Origin: Chlorobiota bacterium
GTDB lineage: Bacteria; Bacteroidota; Ignavibacteria; Kapaibacteriales; NICIL-2
Length of the DNA: 64,000 bases
Assembly (NCBI GenBank): GCA_039810585.1
Contig: JBDHXF010000006.1
Span: 12,486 to 76,485 of the forward strand
Reading direction: 5' to 3'
Of this stretch, positions 10,515 through 48,235 are shown piece by piece. The translations under genes and the position numbers were made by a program. A model generated the notes under the pieces. The model was not told the DNA's origin. It made no database searches and saw only the letters and a program-made list of their open reading frames with translations. Positions within the stretch are counted from its first letter, which is position 1. The number at the start of each line of letters is the position of its first letter.

Positions 10515-10571
10515 AATTCGAGCGTGTTGAAAACACGCTCGAATTATTCATAAGCGAGAGTCTCGCTTATG
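10515..10571. terminator. Two adjacent perfect palindromes between convergent genes
   Basis: 14-bp arms AATTCGAGCGTGTT/AACACGCTCGAATT at 10515..10545. 11-bp arms CATAAGCGAGA-G-TCTCGCTTATG at 10549..10571. The second ends 5 nt from the stop of the giant minus-strand gene. Confidence 0.6.
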
Positions 10572-26211: not shown

Positions 26212-26297
26212 GTGAGCCACCCACTCGGCGATGCCGAGTGGGTGGCTCACTCTTTTTAGGCTTATCCACAAAACAGTGATTCGACTCAAATTTCGAG
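26212..26297 (+). repeat. Intergenic element A1: 18-bp-arm perfect hairpin, T-run and TTATCCACA module
   Basis: GTGAGCCACCCACTCGGC-GAT-GCCGAGTGGGTGGCTCAC (26212..26250), then TCTTTTT, then TTATCCACA (26262..26270). 77/86 identical to A2. Confidence 0.85.
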
Positions 26298-26448: not shown

Positions 26449-26534
26449 GTGAGCCACCCACTTGGCGAAGCCGAGTGGGTGGCTCACGCTTTTTAGGCTT
26501 ATGCACAAAACAGCGATTTCGCTCAAATTTCGAC
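26449..26534 (+). repeat. Intergenic element A2, a copy of A1 237 bp downstream
   Basis: Same hairpin with one arm change (C to T) that keeps a G-U pair only in a plus-strand RNA. Followed by GCTTTTT and TTATGCACA. Confidence 0.85.
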
Positions 26535-39981: not shown

Positions 39982-41277
39982 TTAAAACATCTTCCACTTT
40001 CTTTTTTCAGCGACGACGCTGTAGCGCAGAACATTCCAAAACCACATTGCGAGCATGGTTATCCAAAGCATCGATGCATAAACGTAGTGAGATGTCTGTG
40101 TCTGTGGCCACCAGGAAACTGAGATCCGAGTAAGCGCAGCAACGATAATGCATGCTCCCATCCACGGAAGGTAACTGCGCTTTTCTTCTTCCTGTGCCTG
40201 CGCAACACCGCTATGTGATACACTGACTCGGATTGAAACCATGATCGTCATCAATCCAAAACCGCCAATGAAAGCCAAATGCCAGAGATGAACTGACTGC
40301 TCGGGAAATGCCAGAACAAGTGCCGGCGTTAGCATCAGAGCCAGAATTGAAAACCAGATCATGAGCGAAAATCGATCCTTGCGCTCCGGCATTCGGTGAA
40401 TGTGGAAGACACGAAAGCCCGACCACCACAAGGCAGCGCCAATGAGTACCGAACCGATGCGCGTGAGCATTTCACTCTCGCATACAAATCCAGCCACGAC
40501 ACTGAGGAGAATCATCACATGTTCCGTCGTGACCAATAATGTTTGTGCTTTAAAATGCTGCTGACCATTAACCTCGGTCACGAGTTGAATTTTGTGGGCT
40601 TGACGCATGCCCAGAAAAGCCGGCAGTAATCGAAATCCAACTCCCAAGACCAACAGCAGGATCAAGCCTTTCAAAAAGAAGATTCGTGCAAATACATACA
40701 TCACAAATGGCAGTTCGATCCATTGTGCCAGCACCAGAGTCAGAAGTGAAGCTGTACCCAAAGCAAGTGCTGCCGCCACAAAGAGAAAAGAGTCGGGAGG
40801 ATTTTGTCCGCGCGCGCGAAATCGCTGTACTGCAAACACGTCCGTCCACACCATCATAAGTAGAAAACACATCAATGCCCATCGTTCGCTCATCAACACT
40901 TCAGCTACCAATGCACCCATACTGCAAGCTAATAGTGGTAAAAGATCTCGAACTCTCGCTAATGCACTTTGAGTAAAGCGCGGAAAGGCAGTCCATAGAA
41001 AACCAGTCGCAAAATTTAGCAGAAAGCCACCGCTCATCATGAGCGGATGAACACGGATGGGATTGCTTATCCACTGCACACTGTACAACACCCACACCAT
41101 AGCTCCCACAAAGGCATGCACAGCGCCTAGTGCAAACAAACTGCGATAGGGTTCGATTGGTGAGTCGAGCATACGACGAAGTGTAAAATCCTTTGCGGCT
41201 GCCGGCGTTCCTTCGTCCAATGCTGTTATGCCGGGCTTCCTTTTTTGGACGACTTCTTGCTCAGCACTGCTGTTCAT
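39982..41277 (-). CDS. NnrS-like polytopic membrane protein (431 aa, about 12 TM)
   Basis: VHPLMMSGGFLLNFATGFLWTAFPRFT resembles the NnrS signature H-x-H-E-x-x-x-G-F...GFLLTA-x-P-x-W-T. Size and nos/NO context fit. Assigned from memory of the family. Confidence 0.55.
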   Translation of the reverse strand: MNSSAEQEVVQKRKPGITALDEGTPAAAKDFTLRRMLDSPIEPYRSLFALGAVHAFVGAMVWVLYSVQWISNPIRVHPLMMSGGFLLNFATGFLWTAFPRFTQSALARVRDLLPLLACSMGALVAEVLMSERWALMCFLLMMVWTDVFAVQRFRARGQNPPDSFLFVAAALALGTASLLTLVLAQWIELPFVMYVFARIFFLKGLILLLVLGVGFRLLPAFLGMRQAHKIQLVTEVNGQQHFKAQTLLVTTEHVMILLSVVAGFVCESEMLTRIGSVLIGAALWWSGFRVFHIHRMPERKDRFSLMIWFSILALMLTPALVLAFPEQSVHLWHLAFIGGFGLMTIMVSIRVSVSHSGVAQAQEEEKRSYLPWMGACIIVAALTRISVSWWPQTQTSHYVYASMLWITMLAMWFWNVLRYSVVAEKRKWKMF

Positions 41278-41295: not shown

Positions 41296-42093
41296 TTAGA
41301 ATTGCACAGGAAAGTGTACCACACCTAGCTCTGTACCTCCCTGGCTCAAACGTAGTTGAATATCCCAGCCACCATGCATGTTCAGATTTGCCGCGGCTGC
41401 GAATTCGCCGTCACCGGTTGCTACCGGCTGCACATTACCATCCGACGACATATCCATCGTGGTCATGTGTGTGCTCATGCTTAAGTTCATCGTGCTCATT
41501 GCTTCGATTTGGGTTTGGGTGGAGTGACGATATATCCAAAATCGCAACGGGTTCATACCCATGCATGGGCTGGCCGACAAAGCACAAACGCAGAAATATT
41601 CTTGCCCGTCGCCACCCTGCAGTTTCTGCACGGCACTACTCGTCGGAACCGTGAGCTTCACCGTAAAGTCGTGCTCCGTGTCTGTCAAGTGATTGTGCAC
41701 ATGAACGTTCAGGCTCCAATCCTGTCCACTTATACTGGGCATCGTACAAACCATGGCACCCTCAAAAAGACCCAATGCATTCGGGGCAGTGCTCAACGGC
41801 TGCTCCATCGGCGCGTCATGAGTGCCGCCACTCATCGCCATACTAGCTTGCATTTCCACGTGTGCATCTTGTAACACTTGTCCATTGCAGGCGCACACGC
41901 ATCGAACGTACAGCTTGTTGTACCCTGCGTGTAACGTGTTGTCCGAGTAAATCTCTATTTGTGTATCGCCGTCGCTAAGCTCCGTAATCTTGGCCTTGTT
42001 AATACTTGGTAATGAGACCTCGGGCGCAGTCTGCTGCGAGCACGAACTCAACATCAGAGCAGTGAGTATCAGGGTGAGTAACGCTGTTTTCAT
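41296..42093 (-). CDS. Met/His-rich lipoprotein with two YtkA/FixH-like halves (265 aa)
   Basis: ATG 42093 gives MKTALLTLILTALMLSSC (lipobox). Met/His clusters HVEMQASMAMSGGTHDAPME and MSTMNLSMSTHMTTMDMS. Each half ends in a HGGW/QDW-type strand. Confidence 0.5.
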   Translation of the reverse strand: MKTALLTLILTALMLSSCSQQTAPEVSLPSINKAKITELSDGDTQIEIYSDNTLHAGYNKLYVRCVCACNGQVLQDAHVEMQASMAMSGGTHDAPMEQPLSTAPNALGLFEGAMVCTMPSISGQDWSLNVHVHNHLTDTEHDFTVKLTVPTSSAVQKLQGGDGQEYFCVCALSASPCMGMNPLRFWIYRHSTQTQIEAMSTMNLSMSTHMTTMDMSSDGNVQPVATGDGEFAAAANLNMHGGWDIQLRLSQGGTELGVVHFPVQF

Positions 42094-42179
42094 AGAGGTG
42101 ATAAACCGTGTTTGTGGAAATACTCTTCGCAAGATTTTTTTGCGAATGCGCTTCGCGCCATTCATTGAGAGCGCTGCCG

Positions 42180-43052
42180 TTAAAAGTCCTTTCGTAAGAA
42201 AGTGCGTCGTGCCACAATGACAGGAATGATGGCCCACATTGTGAGCACGCTCAAAGCCAGGCTCATTCCTTGCCAAGAACCAAAGAATTGCTTATAAATC
42301 GCTCCCGTATAACCCATTAAGGCTGATTGATCCAAAACAAGTGATAACATGATTCGAGAAAGATCGATTGGATTGAGAAAACTCAGCACTAAAGCGAAGC
42401 GCTCGGTCGGGTAATCACTAAGAGCGTAAAGCAGAAACAGAAAGAGTCCGTCGTACACAACAGCGCAGAAAAACCACACCATCAACGATGCACCAAATCC
42501 TTTCGCACGCTCATCCATTTTTGTGGCGATTGCGAAGGCAAGAGCGCTGAACGAACAGGTGAGAAGAGCCCCGTTGACCAGTAATAGAAGTGTTCGCCCT
42601 ATAAGGTCTCGATCTCCAAACGAGTGCGCGAGCAGGGGTATACCTGCTCCAACGCAGAAACTCAGGACGAGTGGCAATGATGTGGCCAAAAAAGACGACA
42701 CAAATACCGTCGATCGGCGCACCGGTTGCGACAAAAGCAATTCTGTGAATTCTCTGGTATTGTACACTTGCATCACACTAAACATGATGCTAATGAGCGG
42801 AACGACGATGGTCATGATACTCATAAGTGTCACAAAGACTTTGTCGGCCATACCGGTAAAGCGGAACAACCCCTCACTTAGAGCAACAAAGAACGCGAAG
42901 TAGATCAAGAGCCATTTGTTTCGAGCTGCGTTCCGCAGCTCTACCTTCAAAAGTGAATCGAGAGACGTTCTATGATGTGCGGCAATCAGAGATCTCTCTT
43001 GTGTACTCAGATCTTCAACACTATACGCCGATATGTAGGTACTAGTATTCAT
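42180..43052 (-). CDS. nosY: ABC-2-type permease NosY
   Basis: Six-TM ABC-2 permease translationally coupled (ATGA) to nosF within the nosDFY order. Confidence 0.8.
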   Translation of the reverse strand: MNTSTYISAYSVEDLSTQERSLIAAHHRTSLDSLLKVELRNAARNKWLLIYFAFFVALSEGLFRFTGMADKVFVTLMSIMTIVVPLISIMFSVMQVYNTREFTELLLSQPVRRSTVFVSSFLATSLPLVLSFCVGAGIPLLAHSFGDRDLIGRTLLLLVNGALLTCSFSALAFAIATKMDERAKGFGASLMVWFFCAVVYDGLFLFLLYALSDYPTERFALVLSFLNPIDLSRIMLSLVLDQSALMGYTGAIYKQFFGSWQGMSLALSVLTMWAIIPVIVARRTFLRKDF

Positions 43053-43771
43053 GCGGCTCTCCGAAACGTGACATTTTTCTGCAGTGACGAGACGGCTTGT
43101 TCAAATGATTGTTGACCCGTAGCATGTTGTAATTCAGACTTTGATCCATGAAAGAGCAGAGATCCTTCCAGAATAAACGCGATGTCGTCTGCTAACTCTT
43201 CAATCTCTGCAACAATGTGCGTGGTGAGAAGAATCGTCTTCTCCCTAGCTTTCTCCGTTATAATCAAGTCTTTCAGACGACGAGCCATGAGCGGATCCAA
43301 ACCTGCGGTAGGCTCATCTAGAATGAGAATGGGTGCATCAAACATCATTGCGGCAACAGCGCTCACTTTTTGTCGTGTTCCACCACTGAGAGACTTCATG
43401 TTCTTCTCTGCATGAGGCAGAAGCTCAAATACTTTAAATAGTTCATGGAGTCTTTTGGGCTCTTCTTCTCGTAGCTCCGAAATCATGCCGAGAACTTCGC
43501 GGATTGTCAAGTTGTCCGGATAGCGAGCCACTTGAGGCATGTACCCAATCTGCCGCCTATAACTACCATCATTGCTGACTGCAGTCCCACTAACGTGAAT
43601 AGTGCCACTATCGGGTTTTACTAATCCAAGAATACTCTTGATAAGAGTTGTTTTTCCGGATCCATTGGGACCCAACAATGCCGTTGTCCGGCCATAACCG
43701 AAATGCAACGAAAGGTTATCAAGCACCGGTATGTGAGAGTAGCACTTCCGCAATTGATTGAGATTTATCAT
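43049..43771 (-). CDS. nosF: ABC ATPase NosF
   Basis: Walker A GPNGSGKTT, signature LSGGTRQKV, Walker B LILDEPTAGLD. ATGA overlap with nosD. Confidence 0.9.
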   Translation of the reverse strand: MINLNQLRKCYSHIPVLDNLSLHFGYGRTTALLGPNGSGKTTLIKSILGLVKPDSGTIHVSGTAVSNDGSYRRQIGYMPQVARYPDNLTIREVLGMISELREEEPKRLHELFKVFELLPHAEKNMKSLSGGTRQKVSAVAAMMFDAPILILDEPTAGLDPLMARRLKDLIITEKAREKTILLTTHIVAEIEELADDIAFILEGSLLFHGSKSELQHATGQQSFEQAVSSLQKNVTFRRAA

Positions 43772-45012
43772 GAGAACGTCCTCAATGGCTTCATAGATGG
43801 CGCATCATCCTGCATGGTAGCAGGAGTAACGGTAGGAAAGATTGATTCTGCCAAGTCCAAGAGGGACACAAAGAAACTGTGGAGCAACAGCATTGCCGGC
43901 GAATTTTGCTCAACGATTGTAGAAAAAAGTCGAACGGGGCGGAAAGGCACGTCACCGACGCCATTTTTGTCTAAATCATACCCCGTATATCGATCCCAAT
44001 AATTCCCGTGAAATGTACTGTAAGCGGTATAATCGTTTGTTGCAACATCAAAACTGTTGGAGCTAAAGTTGTTTGAGTCAATCAGATTGTCGACGGAGCT
44101 TGCCATCAATCTCATCGCCCATCCATTTGAGATAAAGTTATTGCGGTAGATATGCATGGATCCACCACTTTCCGCGTAAATACCCGATGAATTGCCCTTG
44201 AAAACATTGTTACAAATCGTTGCGTGGGATATTTCTTTGAGTAAAAGCGCATAGGAAGCGTCGCCAAGATTATCCTCAAATACATTGTCTTTCATCAGAA
44301 TGTCGTGTGTATACATCACAGCTACACCAGAACCATTATGATGGAAACGATTCTGTTGATACTCGTTGTGGTGCGAAAACATGAAGTGCAAACCATAACG
44401 AATATTGCCCTTGCTTTCGTTGTTCATGACTCGAGTGTTGGTCGTAAACTCCAAGTAGATCCCGTCTCTATGTTGATCGACAACATTATTGCGGATCAAA
44501 TAGTCATCACAATACCAGCAGTGAATTCCATTCCCGGAAGCACTTTCACTGTTGGCATTACTTTGAATGAAATTGTTACTAATGGTATTGTGCTTACTCT
44601 TTGCTGAGTATATGCCATAGCTGCAGCACAGAATTGTATTCGCATCGATCACACAACCCTCCACAAATTTCAACCTGATCCCCGAGCGCTCGTAGATATA
44701 GGAGTCGCCTGTATGGCAAATGGTAAATCCGCGAATGGTGACATTATTTGAGGTCACTACGATTACCTCACAAGAATCAGCGCCATCAACCGTAACATCG
44801 CCATCTGCTATTAGTTGAATCGCCTTATCGACAACAATGGTACCTTCACAGTACCACCCTTTATGGACGCGAACAATATCACCCGCCTTTGTATTCTCAA
44901 GCGCACGATGTAGTGGCATTGGAAATACAGGATAGACGTCCACTGTCCTGCTGAAGGAATATTGCGTTGCGCTCAGGAAGAGTAGAATCAGCACGGGAAG
45001 TCGGCACTTCAT
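43768..45012 (-). CDS. nosD: Periplasmic right-handed beta-helix protein NosD
   Basis: Signal peptide. Repeated parallel-beta-helix units (NNxI...N pattern). Position immediately upstream of nosF and nosY. Confidence 0.85.
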   Translation of the reverse strand: MKCRLPVLILLFLSATQYSFSRTVDVYPVFPMPLHRALENTKAGDIVRVHKGWYCEGTIVVDKAIQLIADGDVTVDGADSCEVIVVTSNNVTIRGFTICHTGDSYIYERSGIRLKFVEGCVIDANTILCCSYGIYSAKSKHNTISNNFIQSNANSESASGNGIHCWYCDDYLIRNNVVDQHRDGIYLEFTTNTRVMNNESKGNIRYGLHFMFSHHNEYQQNRFHHNGSGVAVMYTHDILMKDNVFEDNLGDASYALLLKEISHATICNNVFKGNSSGIYAESGGSMHIYRNNFISNGWAMRLMASSVDNLIDSNNFSSNSFDVATNDYTAYSTFHGNYWDRYTGYDLDKNGVGDVPFRPVRLFSTIVEQNSPAMLLLHSFFVSLLDLAESIFPTVTPATMQDDAPSMKPLRTFS

Positions 45013-45064: not shown

Positions 45065-46138
45065 CTACCAGGTTTTAGCGACAAGCAGTCGTGCGCTATC
45101 GAAATAGTACAACTCACCTCCATTGGTGGCGTGAGAAGCCTCGTATGCCTCTTTCGTGCCATACGCACTCAGGTTTAGGCCCATGGGACTCGGAAGTTTT
45201 TCGGATTTGAGATACCATGCCTTTCGTGCGGCGATAAGATTGCCAGGGTTAGCATAGTCCACTACCCATTCTGTTGCGATATCGTCCGGATCAACTGATT
45301 TGTCTTGCTCGAAGCCAAGCATACATTCAATGCTATCAAACTTGTAGACTTTTGTCTTCTTTGTAATGAGCTCGGCACCAAAGCGTTGGTCTGTAATGGT
45401 CATTTTACAGTGAGCACATTCCTCGCTACCAAAGTGGATTGCCTCAGCCTTATCTGAGCACGCATTCAGGGCGAAGCACATCCCGAGAAGAGCGACTCCC
45501 ACGAGCCCCTCATTTATTCGAGCGGCGGAACCGCCGCTCGAATTCAACGACACTTGAGCGTTCTTCTTTTGAATCGGTTTCGACTTCCACCAGGTAAAAG
45601 CTCCAAGCGCAAGTGAAACAAACATGAGGTAACCACCAACGCCCGGAAGGGAAAGCGCGTGGAAGTTCAGAAGCTGTTTGCCACCAATCAGTGGTGGTTG
45701 ATAGGTCATGTCCGGGATGCAAATTGCGGCGTGAGGATTGAGATTGTGGCCGTAATCATATTCCCAGTTATAGAAATCTATCATTCCAGCTACTCCCAAA
45801 GCAATAAACACTACCACCCAAGAGAGCAACATCCATCGTTTTCCAAACGCGACAACGGCCAATGCGAGCACAATAAGGGAGGCTACGATTGTTGGCATGT
45901 AGCGCAATTCGGCAATACTGTCAGGTTCAATTCGCTTCATTCCGATGTAGTGGTTGAGGTTATTAATACTAGCCAAATCCTGTTCTTTTTCTCCGACTAT
46001 TGTGTTGATGTGGATTCGAAGACCCAAGCCCTCCGGATATTGAGGCGCCTCCAAGTTTATTTGCCATAGTGGGAAGGCGTATAGACCGCAAAGGAGTACA
46101 GCGCTAATTGCAATAAGTATGCGGTGTGTAGTGTTCAT
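45065..46138 (-). CDS. nosL: Single ORF joining a NosB-like 4-TM membrane domain to a NosL-like copper-chaperone lipoprotein domain
   Basis: The N-terminal half has four TM helices directly downstream of a Sec-type nosZ, which is the NosB position. The C-terminal half has its own lipoprotein-type signal (GLVGVALLGMCFALNAC) and a NosL-like core (CAHCKMTI...KFDSIECM...PSPMG). ATG 46138. Confidence 0.7.
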   Translation of the reverse strand: MNTTHRILIAISAVLLCGLYAFPLWQINLEAPQYPEGLGLRIHINTIVGEKEQDLASINNLNHYIGMKRIEPDSIAELRYMPTIVASLIVLALAVVAFGKRWMLLSWVVVFIALGVAGMIDFYNWEYDYGHNLNPHAAICIPDMTYQPPLIGGKQLLNFHALSLPGVGGYLMFVSLALGAFTWWKSKPIQKKNAQVSLNSSGGSAARINEGLVGVALLGMCFALNACSDKAEAIHFGSEECAHCKMTITDQRFGAELITKKTKVYKFDSIECMLGFEQDKSVDPDDIATEWVVDYANPGNLIAARKAWYLKSEKLPSPMGLNLSAYGTKEAYEASHATNGGELYYFDSARLLVAKTW

Positions 46139-46261
46139 GTGATAACCCGACAATTGGTGAGAAGAATGGTGAATGCACGTGTGTGGCAGCGGCACAATTC
46201 TGAATTCTGCTGCGTGAAGGGAATGCGCCATTCACTGCACATCCCCTTCACTGTGCGCTCG

Positions 46262-48235
46262 TTACTCTTCAAGCTTTGGAGTCGATCCAGTCGACAATGG
46301 AACGCTTGATCCGGCGGGAGAAACCCGGATGTAGCCTTGCATTTCTTGATGGAGCGCAGAGCAGAAATCTGTGCAGTAAAATGGTTGAATGCCGGCTGTC
46401 TTTGGAGTCCACTTAAGCGTTTGTGTTTCTCCGGGCATTATGAGGAGTTCGGAATTATCTGCGCCGCGGATAGCAAAGCCGTGAGGCACGTCCCAGTCTT
46501 GCTCAAGGTTCGTCACGTGGAAGTACACGACATCACCAACATGCACTCCTTCGATATTGTCCGGTTTGAAGTGCGATCGAATCGAAGTCATATATACATG
46601 TACTTCATTTCCTTTGCGTTCCACTCTCGCGTCTTTTTCGCCCATCGCCACGAATGGGTGCTTACTCTCTGTCAGCTTGAAACTCTTGACGGAGTTCTTT
46701 TCAAGCAGCGTTGCAGGACACATTTGCGCATAATGTGGCTCTCCTACTGTTGGGAAGTCAAGTAGCAATTTCATTTTGTCTCCACTGATATCGAATAGCT
46801 GTGCGGACTGGCATAGTTCCGGTCCCGTGGGGAGATACCGGTCCTTTGTAATTTTGTTCAGAGCAACCAGATATTTTCCGGTCGGATTTCTGTTATCGCC
46901 GCCAGCCACACATAAGTGACCAATGGAGTAGTACGTAGGCTGTCTGTCCACTACGGAAAAGTCTTTGAGGGACCATTTCACGACTTCCGAACTGACGAAC
47001 ATGGATGTGTAGGCAAATCCTTTTCCATCGAATTCCGTATGCAGCGGTCCTAATCCTGGCTTCTTGACTTCGCCGGCCAGGGCGGCTTCGTACTTAATAA
47101 TTGGAATGCCATTCACATCGCCTGCGAATTCCTTGTTTTCTATTGCCTTCAAGAGCTTCGTGTACGAGAAGACCGGAATGATAGCTGCCAGCTTACCGCT
47201 TGCTGCTATGTACTCGCCTGTGGGATCTACGTCGCAACCGTGTGGAGATTTTGGCGCAGGAATGAGATACACTAATCCGGGACACTCTTTTGGATCAAGC
47301 TGTATGCATGAGTTTTCCATGGTGGAGTTTGCGCTGTGCGTAGACTCATCATAGTGGTTGTGTGCGTATTGACAAGGAACGGTCTTCCCTTTACCTTGTG
47401 CCACATACTCCTCGGCTTTTTTCCAATTTATTGCCGCGACAAAGTCCTTGTCGTTTTGGCTTGCATTCACCTCTAGCAAGGTATTTGCCTCCTCGGAGTT
47501 ATAACAACTGAAGAACATCCAACCATGTGACTTATCTTTTCCTGCACATGCTAAGTCGTAGTCAAACGGTGGCATGTTGATTTGAAAGGCGAGCGACATT
47601 GTCCCACTCTTTGGGTCAACTTTCACGAACGATGCACGACCATGGAAATTTTGCTTGTACGAGTCAATCGGCACGTCAGAATTCGATTCGTCTGGTAGTG
47701 AGAAGCGTGATGCGGATACCACATACTCAGTTCCTTGAGTCGTGTACGGCGACCCGTGATTTCCACCTGTGTTTGGAATTTCAATGATTTCGGCAGTGCG
47801 GAATGTCGACAGATCGATTCGAGCAATACGCGGGGTATTGTTGCAGTTCGCGAAGAGCCATCGACCATCGTCGTTCCCATCTGTTCGACTCAGCTGCAAG
47901 TGGTGCTGGTCATCCCAAGGGATGAACCCTCGCGAGGTCATTAGCATGGGTTTTGTTTCCTCACTGTATCCCCACCCACTCTCTGGATTTTGCGAGAACA
48001 CAGGTATAGTGCGAAACAACCGACCGCTTGGAACCCCGTAGACACCAATCTGACCACTAAAACCACCGGACGTAAACAAGTACATTTCGTCATGCTTACC
48101 AGGCGGCACGAAAACTCTCGATGCAGCATCACCATCCGTCATTGCTGTTTTCGAGGATGCCGGACATCCGTTGAAGTTCAGTGCTATCAGAATGATAGCA
48201 ACGACTCCGACCGTTAGACTAACAAGGTATTTCAT
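46262..48235 (-). CDS. nosZ: Nitrous-oxide reductase NosZ, Sec-dependent (clade II/atypical) type
   Basis: 657 aa. N-terminus MKYLVSLTVGVVAIILIALNFNGC has no twin-arginine motif. Propeller His ligands are present. C-terminal CuA site FYCTDFCSALHQEM. Confidence 0.95.
   Translation of the reverse strand: MKYLVSLTVGVVAIILIALNFNGCPASSKTAMTDGDAASRVFVPPGKHDEMYLFTSGGFSGQIGVYGVPSGRLFRTIPVFSQNPESGWGYSEETKPMLMTSRGFIPWDDQHHLQLSRTDGNDDGRWLFANCNNTPRIARIDLSTFRTAEIIEIPNTGGNHGSPYTTQGTEYVVSASRFSLPDESNSDVPIDSYKQNFHGRASFVKVDPKSGTMSLAFQINMPPFDYDLACAGKDKSHGWMFFSCYNSEEANTLLEVNASQNDKDFVAAINWKKAEEYVAQGKGKTVPCQYAHNHYDESTHSANSTMENSCIQLDPKECPGLVYLIPAPKSPHGCDVDPTGEYIAASGKLAAIIPVFSYTKLLKAIENKEFAGDVNGIPIIKYEAALAGEVKKPGLGPLHTEFDGKGFAYTSMFVSSEVVKWSLKDFSVVDRQPTYYSIGHLCVAGGDNRNPTGKYLVALNKITKDRYLPTGPELCQSAQLFDISGDKMKLLLDFPTVGEPHYAQMCPATLLEKNSVKSFKLTESKHPFVAMGEKDARVERKGNEVHVYMTSIRSHFKPDNIEGVHVGDVVYFHVTNLEQDWDVPHGFAIRGADNSELLIMPGETQTLKWTPKTAGIQPFYCTDFCSALHQEMQGYIRVSPAGSSVPLSTGSTPKLEE

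Follow-up and report, generated by a model that had tools for sequence, protein, structure and literature searches.

A NosB-NosL fusion with a predicted internal lipoprotein signal and a strong palindrome in its linker

The gene that follows nosZ in the 64,000-nt stretch of Chlorobiota DNA analyzed here (the window) encodes NosB and NosL in a single open reading frame (ORF), with a 28-nt perfect palindrome at the junction. The reading that we favor, at a probability of roughly 0.6, is that of a normal NosB-NosL fusion whose internal lipoprotein signal is processed and whose palindrome is lineage specific and neutral. Comparison with relatives makes it nearly certain that the fusion is an ordinary member of a known, old, and common family, which occurs in clade II nos clusters of the Bacteroidota/Ignavibacteria group and phyla close to it. 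By the same comparison, the palindrome is neither a relic of a recent gene fusion nor a family-wide regulatory device, and we hold, with moderate confidence, that it is most likely neutral or of small effect on translation speed or RNA decay. The elements listed in the first-pass annotation, namely, the single ORF, the 28-nt palindrome, an in-frame TTG, an internal lipoprotein signal, and the CAHCKM stretch, are all present and lie on the minus strand.

The nosBL gene and its operon

46262..48235, minus strand: nosZ, directly upstream of nosBL on the same strand
46213..46256, minus strand: post-nosZ hairpin, directly after the nosZ stop codon
45065..46138, minus strand: nosBL, the NosB-NosL fusion, a single ORF of 357 aa that starts MNTTHR
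43768..45012, minus strand: nosD, downstream of nosBL
43049..43771, minus strand: nosF, after nosD
42180..43052, minus strand: nosY, after nosF
41296..42276, minus strand: YtkA-like gene, after nosY
39982..41277, minus strand: NnrS gene, after the YtkA-like gene

On the minus strand, the genes run in the order Rrf2 regulator, cytochrome c, nosZ, nosBL, nosD, nosF, nosY, YtkA-like gene, and NnrS, and the nos gene order is kept in the three nearest relatives (loci L001 to L003), of which L001 is the closest at 71% identity; no relative closer than that was present in the databases searched. The pair formed by the YtkA-like gene and NnrS also occurs in L003, the YtkA-like gene is absent from L001 and L002, and a fasciclin-domain gene comes after NnrS in the relatives. 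By its context, with a NosB gene directly downstream and a cluster that lacks nosR, the nosZ gene is assigned to clade II. Transcript evidence consisted of only a 164-nt RNA contig (45993 to 46156) from an activated-sludge metatranscriptome, and a search for reads turned up no DNA run.

A longer ORF call for nosBL is available, starting from an ATG at 46231 and giving 388 aa. Because that ATG sits within the post-nosZ hairpin and because the N termini of nosBL homologues align with MNTTHR, we placed the start at the ATG at 46138, which is likely the true one. A database copy of the protein (P0001, 388 aa) begins at the upstream ATG, taking in window positions 46139 to 46231, and is probably an over-extended gene call; a second database protein (P0003) carries a similar N-terminal extension.

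The post-nosZ hairpin is itself kept in the three nearest relatives (L001, 5893 to 5936; L002, 5985 to 6028; L003, 5893 to 5936) with compensatory changes and a loop that keeps GTGAAT, and it is the strongest operon structure in the window and in L001 to L003. It matched no Rfam family; an Rfam search of the whole window returned only a tRNA. This element is probably a conserved terminator, attenuator, or stabilizer that sets nosZ apart from the accessory genes. Many other loci have a perfect hairpin just upstream of nosBL.

Within the fusion protein, five parts can be told apart:

45584..46138, minus strand: NosB-like part (residues 1 to 185), with four membrane helices and motif-bearing periplasmic loops
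45509..45583, minus strand: hypervariable, basic cytoplasmic linker (residues 186 to 210), KSKPIQKKNAQVSLNSSGGSAARINE
45461..45508, minus strand: fifth hydrophobic helix (residues 211 to 226; about 208 to 226 by hydropathy and AlphaFold), the h-region of the internal lipoprotein signal
45458..45469, minus strand: lipobox L-N-A-C, ending in Cys227
45068..45457, minus strand: NosL copper-chaperone domain (residues 228 to 357)

The N-terminal half gave zero matches to Pfam or NCBIfam models, so its similarity to NosB rests on motifs and context. It is polytopic, with membrane helices at about residues 7 to 25, 81 to 99, 102 to 120, and 167 to 185 (hydropathy and AlphaFold model), and its periplasmic loops bear APQYPEG, LNHYIGMK, EYDYGHN, and YQPP; the LNHYIGM (residues 61 to 67) and YGHN (residues 129 to 132) stretches are listed as hallmarks of NosB (PMC9697520). 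The gene adjoins a clade II nosZ, in the same order as in L001 to L003. In the predicted model, both of the long loops that carry the conserved motifs form beta strands. The predicted NosB fold (model m8d350cb0f2d1) combines a bundle of four helices with a beta sheet on the periplasmic side to which both long loops contribute; its best structural matches were weak ones to claudins and TARP subunits (TM-score of about 0.47 to 0.49; E of about 1e-3); no solved structure or curated profile was found for NosB. The NosB of Wolinella succinogenes is likewise a membrane protein whose gene neighbors a clade II nosZ, but that gene is separate, whereas here NosB is fused to NosL. That protein is reported to be essential for N2O respiration (Hein et al. 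2017, as cited in passages of PMC9697520 and PMC11409646), and a NosB-NosC2 fusion is described for some cases in a passage of PMC11409646 that also cites Hein et al. 2017.

The C-terminal half is readily recognized as NosL, with a match to the Pfam NosL model (PF05573) over residues 238 to 347 (45.3 bits against a cutoff of 24), PDB profile matches to NosL chains at an E value of 1e-8, and a predicted fold that matches 7og7 (TM-score, 0.75) and also 7osf. It has the CxxCxM motif, the Asp/Cys pair, the distal Met, and a lipobox signal, and its metal ligands (C241, C244, M246, D268, C272, and M319) show little or no variation among 31 sequences, in agreement with the ligand roles described for Shewanella denitrificans NosL, including the Cys/Asp swap of clade II (PMC8457098). 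Canonical NosL proteins (Pseudomonas stutzeri, 7osf and 7znq; S. denitrificans, 7og7) have the same fold, the same CxxCxM and Met ligands, and a lipobox Cys before the domain; unlike in those proteins, the signal here is internal, behind a four-helix membrane protein, and would not form a free N-terminal signal peptide.

Fusions of this kind have been described before. A passage of PMC9697520 that cites van Spanning 2011 and Hein et al. 2017 gives the fusion for Dyadobacter fermentans, and the same paper describes a "NosB-L" fusion in some flavobacteria, with two genes in others. As in the window, the NosB-L proteins of D. fermentans, Flavobacterium azooxidireducens, F. denitrificans, and F. 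crocinum are encoded by one gene between a clade II nosZ and nosD and consist of an N-terminal polytopic part with LNHYIGM and YGHN followed by a C-terminal NosL domain; the window copy has 42 to 54% identity to the named Bacteroidota and Ignavibacteria members. What sets it apart is the strong palindrome in its linker, which is unmentioned in the NosB-L papers and absent from most relatives. A search of 5.8 billion proteins gave 7,245 matches, and the best 120, which were examined, were nearly all full length (331 to 427 aa, mostly with 90 to 100% query coverage). Together with a genome scan that found 587 relatives, these 120 span at least seven named lineages (Bacteroidota, Ignavibacteria, Rhodothermia/Rhodothermales, Gemmatimonadota, Zixiibacteriota, Calditrichia, and Latescibacteria), and the source labels among the best protein matches include Catalinimonas. 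From the genome scan, a set of 84 loci was assembled (the best 80, the window, and three close relatives), and both halves lie in one ORF at 76 of these, the window's uninterrupted ORF being of the same kind. The first-pass annotation had regarded orthologues with a continuous ORF but no palindrome as evidence against its proposal; the orthologous ORFs are indeed commonly continuous and mostly lack the palindrome, which goes halfway toward that outcome.

The internal lipoprotein signal and the split relatives

The linker is the least conserved portion of the NosB-NosL alignment, and the structure model is unconfident there (pLDDT below 50 at residues 196 to 212). Its charge is more telling: among 68 fused relatives, the linker has on average 5.2 Lys and Arg residues versus 1.2 Asp and Glu residues, and the other basic segments of the membrane part are the N terminus (MNTTHR) and the short loop at residues 99 to 101 (GKR). 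Basic segments of membrane proteins stay in the cytoplasm (the positive-inside rule). Given this basic tail, the chain should therefore be cytoplasmic after helix 4, and since NosL works in the periplasm, a fifth helix in the N-in/C-out orientation is required. The earlier statement that an internal signal makes no sense in the middle of a fusion was thus mistaken, as the fifth helix is needed for the export of NosL after a four-helix NosB. This helix belongs to the signal sequence RINEGLVGVALLGMCFALNAC present in the window's protein; 3' of the palindrome, the order is LVGVALLGMCFALNAC and then the NosL domain with CAHCKM. In the family profile, the fifth-helix segment lines up with the signal peptide of NosL from P. 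stutzeri, a lipoprotein of solved structure.

The lipobox is under strict constraint. Its Cys is invariant (31 of 31 aligned sequences and 68 of 68 fused relatives) and is not among the metal ligands of NosL. Across the 68 fused relatives, position -1 is Ser (34 sequences), Gly (21), or Ala (13) and nothing else, position -3 is mostly Leu, Phe, Met, or Ile, and the uncharged run ahead of the Cys has a median length of 16 aa. Recognition by Lgt and signal peptidase II is what specifically constrains positions -1 and -3. On these grounds, we infer that Cys227 is lipidated and, with moderate confidence, that the chain is probably cleaved before it; our literature search turned up no report of an internal signal being cut by signal peptidase II.

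More can be learned from the eight loci at which the two halves are separate genes (L006, L007, L009, L023, L045, L055, L064, and L078). There, nosB ends 6 to 15 residues past helix 4, and in seven of them nosL, with an ordinary lipoprotein signal, begins 0 to 84 nt later (the gap in L078 is longer). In all eight, nosL is in the frame of nosB, for which the chance expectation would be (1/3)^8, and in six a single stop codon separates the two genes, with the sequence TAAATG in L006 and L045. As the reading frame is shared and a single stop lies between the genes, the split and fused states can interconvert by single substitutions. The nearest neighbor of each split locus is fused, and the split loci are most simply explained by repeated fission of fused genes through nonsense mutation. 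What these relatives also tell us, by sequence comparison, is that the internal segment functions as a lipoprotein signal.

The following course of events would account for these observations. NosB-NosL would be translated as one chain; NosB would enter the membrane with its N terminus inside, its four helices inserted, and its basic tail left in the cytoplasm; and the next hydrophobic segment would act as an internal N-in/C-out lipoprotein signal that carries NosL into the periplasm. Cys227 would then be lipid modified by Lgt, and signal peptidase II would probably cut before it, leaving the signal as a fifth helix of NosB and NosL tethered to the membrane beside NosB and NosDFY. Among the possibilities raised in the first-pass annotation, a true fusion cleaved at the lipobox fits best: the fusion itself (76 of 84 loci) and the lipobox (68 of 68) stand, while cleavage is what we infer from them.

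The palindrome in the linker

45516..45543, unstranded: perfect palindrome of 28 nt, ATTCGAGCGGCGG-AA-CCGCCGCTCGAAT, with 13-nt arms and a 2-nt spacer
45545..45547, minus strand: in-frame TTG (Leu198), 1 nt upstream of the stem
45500..45511, minus strand: GAGG-N5-GTG, with GAGG at 45511 to 45508 and an in-frame GTG (Val213) at 45502 to 45500, just after the hairpin

The palindrome encodes NSSGGSAARI (codons 199 to 208) and is far beyond chance: in first-order Markov shuffles, a perfect inverted repeat whose arms reach 13 nt or more and whose loop does not exceed 10 nt turns up 0.03 times per 64 kb. A check of its folding energy bore out its strength, the isolated RNA folding at -22.6 kcal/mol into a stem of 12 bp closed by a GUUC loop, and the 101-nt stretch around it has a z score of -4.5 against shuffles. 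When the nos operon was scanned with a 44-nt sliding fold (mean, -7.0; standard deviation, 3.4), two outliers emerged, the post-nosZ hairpin (-26.9) and the palindrome (-25.9). It is the only intragenic one among the 10 strong hairpins in the window, and among the perfect repeats with arms of 12 nt or longer in 624 kb of sequence (the window together with related loci), only five were scored as intragenic.

Intercistronic stem-loops shape the segmental stability of mRNAs. With a perfect, GC-rich stem that matches the post-nosZ hairpin in strength, the palindrome resembles such stem-loops and intrinsic terminators; unlike them, it lies inside an ORF, lacks a U-tract, and is not conserved in the family. 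We rejected an intrinsic terminator, given that the stem is followed by AAUAAAUGAGGGG, without a U-tract, and was not called by the terminator scan. A programmed -1 frameshift was likewise rejected, as the upstream sequence GUGUCGUUGA holds no slippery heptamer 5 to 9 nt before the stem; the nearest A-rich run upstream, CAAAAGAAG, is roughly 20 nt away. Both other frames meet stops soon after the hairpin (45512 to 45522, minus strand; UAA in the +1 frame and UGA in the -1 frame). A frameshift anywhere in the stem would thus yield NosB alone, and the placement of these stops may be due to chance.

Comparison with the relatives indicates that the palindrome is lineage specific and not a conserved feature of the family. 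When the strongest 44-nt fold was located in each of 68 fused genes, it fell within the linker in only 6 (the window, L001, L054, L066, L075, and L077), about what chance would give for the linker's share of the gene, and a family-wide linker hairpin was rejected on this count. No counterpart of the palindrome was found in L002, L003, L084, or L085 (62 to 68% identity). The distance from LLNF to the lipobox Cys is 71 residues in the window and 65 to 72 residues in relatives, and because the linker has the same length as in relatives, we rejected an origin of the palindrome by insertion. Nor is it a repeat of the REP or MITE type, a candidate rejected with one partial look-alike in the window and none in 85 loci.

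The exact palindrome had no match in the metagenome collection. Its shared arms, AATTCGAGCG..CGCTCGAATT, had 43 metagenome matches, which were unrelated single hairpins in about the number expected of a very large database, and the 8-mer TTCGAGCG occurs 8 times in the window, compared with 3.4 expected, and is not clearly enriched. An intergenic hairpin between convergent genes (10515 to 10545) has its outer 10 nt, AATTCGAGCG...CGCTCGAATT, in common with the nosBL palindrome; by a rough estimate, such an in-register match among about 10 hairpins is at the 1e-3 level, but neither the 85 loci nor the metagenomes revealed a larger family. Elsewhere in the window, two 85-nt direct repeats (26212 to 26296 and 26449 to 26533), 91% identical and 237 nt apart, lie in a 670-nt intergenic gap, and each opens with a hairpin with 18-bp arms that is followed by a T-run; they may represent small RNA genes in tandem or terminators that were duplicated.

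Only the closest relative, L001, shares the palindrome, in the form of a 6-bp core: at the same codons, it has GCGGCG-GCUU-CGCCGC (-12.3 kcal/mol), encoding GGFAAR where the window has GGSAAR. Over the core, 21 of 27 nt match, against a flanking linker of 11 to 28% identity, and the proteins agree at 6 of 9 residues there, compared with 2 of 19 across the remainder of the linker (Fisher P = 0.005). This similarity hints at some constraint and sits badly with a purely neutral view. At the same time, the core pairs shared with L001 are identical, with no compensatory changes, and the core keeps 4 of its 6 synonymous sites, which is not significantly above the 38% baseline (P = 0.16); for these two reasons, selection on the palindrome at the RNA level is unproven. 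The outer seven pairs are formed in the window only and may have been either gained here or lost in L001. As to its position, the palindrome sits exactly where the split relatives have their stop and start codons. It also occupies the only part of the gene without constraint on the protein. If the favored reading is right, ordinary mutation, such as template switching, most likely created it from a short GC palindrome or extended it from one, and slowed ribosomes or a barrier to RNA decay would be the largest effect to expect of it.

Alternative explanations and implications

A reading that grants the hairpin more than this is that NosB-NosL is a polyprotein, processed by Lgt and then by signal peptidase II at the internal lipobox, in which the hairpin additionally serves, in this lineage, as a pause site or a nascent cistron boundary; we put its chances somewhat short of even. 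A hairpin that is a functional mRNA element in its own right, either as a ribosome pause that times the insertion of helices 3 and 4 before the signal emerges or as a barrier to 3'-to-5' decay that marks a segment boundary of the nos transcript, seems unlikely to us. Its strength, second in the operon and on a par with that of the conserved post-nosZ hairpin, speaks for such a role, as do the core common to L001 within an otherwise unalignable linker and the hairpins that the relatives have at cistron ends (after nosZ in all four loci and after nosBL in L001 and L002). These points have to be set against its absence from four of the closer relatives, the lack of any excess of linker hairpins among the 68 fused genes, and the missing covariation and nonsignificant synonymous-site conservation; furthermore, a decay stop at this place would leave an mRNA without a stop codon.

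It had been proposed that NosL is initiated internally under the control of the hairpin, and in its fuller form this proposal would have NosL also or mainly made from the TTG at 45547 or from the GTG at 45502 behind GAGG, at a rate set by the hairpin. With its 5-nt spacing, the GAGG-N5-GTG arrangement does resemble the ribosome-binding sites of some window genes, and the segment that follows works as a stand-alone signal in the split relatives. Such motifs precede only 12 of 41 gene starts in the window, however, compared with a background of 12.5%; the GAGG motif is missing in L001; and the product predicted from the GTG, MGVALLGMCFALNAC, has no basic residue and thus no basic n-region. The TTG is unlikely to be a start codon, as its position 1 nt from a stem of -22.6 kcal/mol should hinder initiation. 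An in-frame Met between -30 and -15 from the Cys occurs in 22 of 68 relatives, compared with 41% expected, and a conserved internal start codon was rejected for want of Met enrichment. Comparative support is accordingly lacking, and we regard internal initiation as quite improbable. We also consider it improbable that this lineage descends from an ancestor in which a hairpin lay between separate nosB and nosL genes and that the stop was lost, leaving the hairpin in coding sequence. The ease with which single stop codons interconvert the two states, the location of the hairpin at the junction of the split relatives, and the longer linkers of the window's clade (65 to 72 residues, compared with 51 to 63 in most Bacteroidota) would suit such a history. 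Yet the five nearest relatives are all fused, as are nearly all others, so that the recent loss of a stop suggested earlier finds no support in the window's lineage; the fused nearest neighbor of each split locus points to fission from fused ancestors; no comparable junction hairpin is found in the split relatives; and the window's linker holds no remnant of a start codon. Least credible of all is an assembly artifact, with a stop or frameshift hidden in the palindrome. Palindromes are hard to sequence, and no read was found across this one, but the halves share one frame, as in hundreds of relatives, the independently assembled L001 has homologous codons (GG-F-AAR) with the same GC core, and the flanks of the palindrome are not inverted copies of each other.

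For annotation, this means that the gene should be named as a NosB-NosL fusion with its start at 46138, and neither be taken for a misassembly nor be called only "NosL." The palindrome alone is for now a curiosity. If the polyprotein reading were true, a single translation product would give rise to NosB with five helices and NosL with a lipid anchor, side by side and at a fixed ratio of 1:1, and internal lipoprotein processing in a polytopic membrane protein would be a family-wide trait. The internal lipobox is conserved as strictly as that of free-standing NosL, and fused and split forms differ by one stop codon; from these two facts, it can be argued that the fusion is probably processed by the lipoprotein machinery and that NosB works directly with the copper chaperone. 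Processing of the fusion would thereby bear on the role of NosB in the maturation of clade II N2O reductase.
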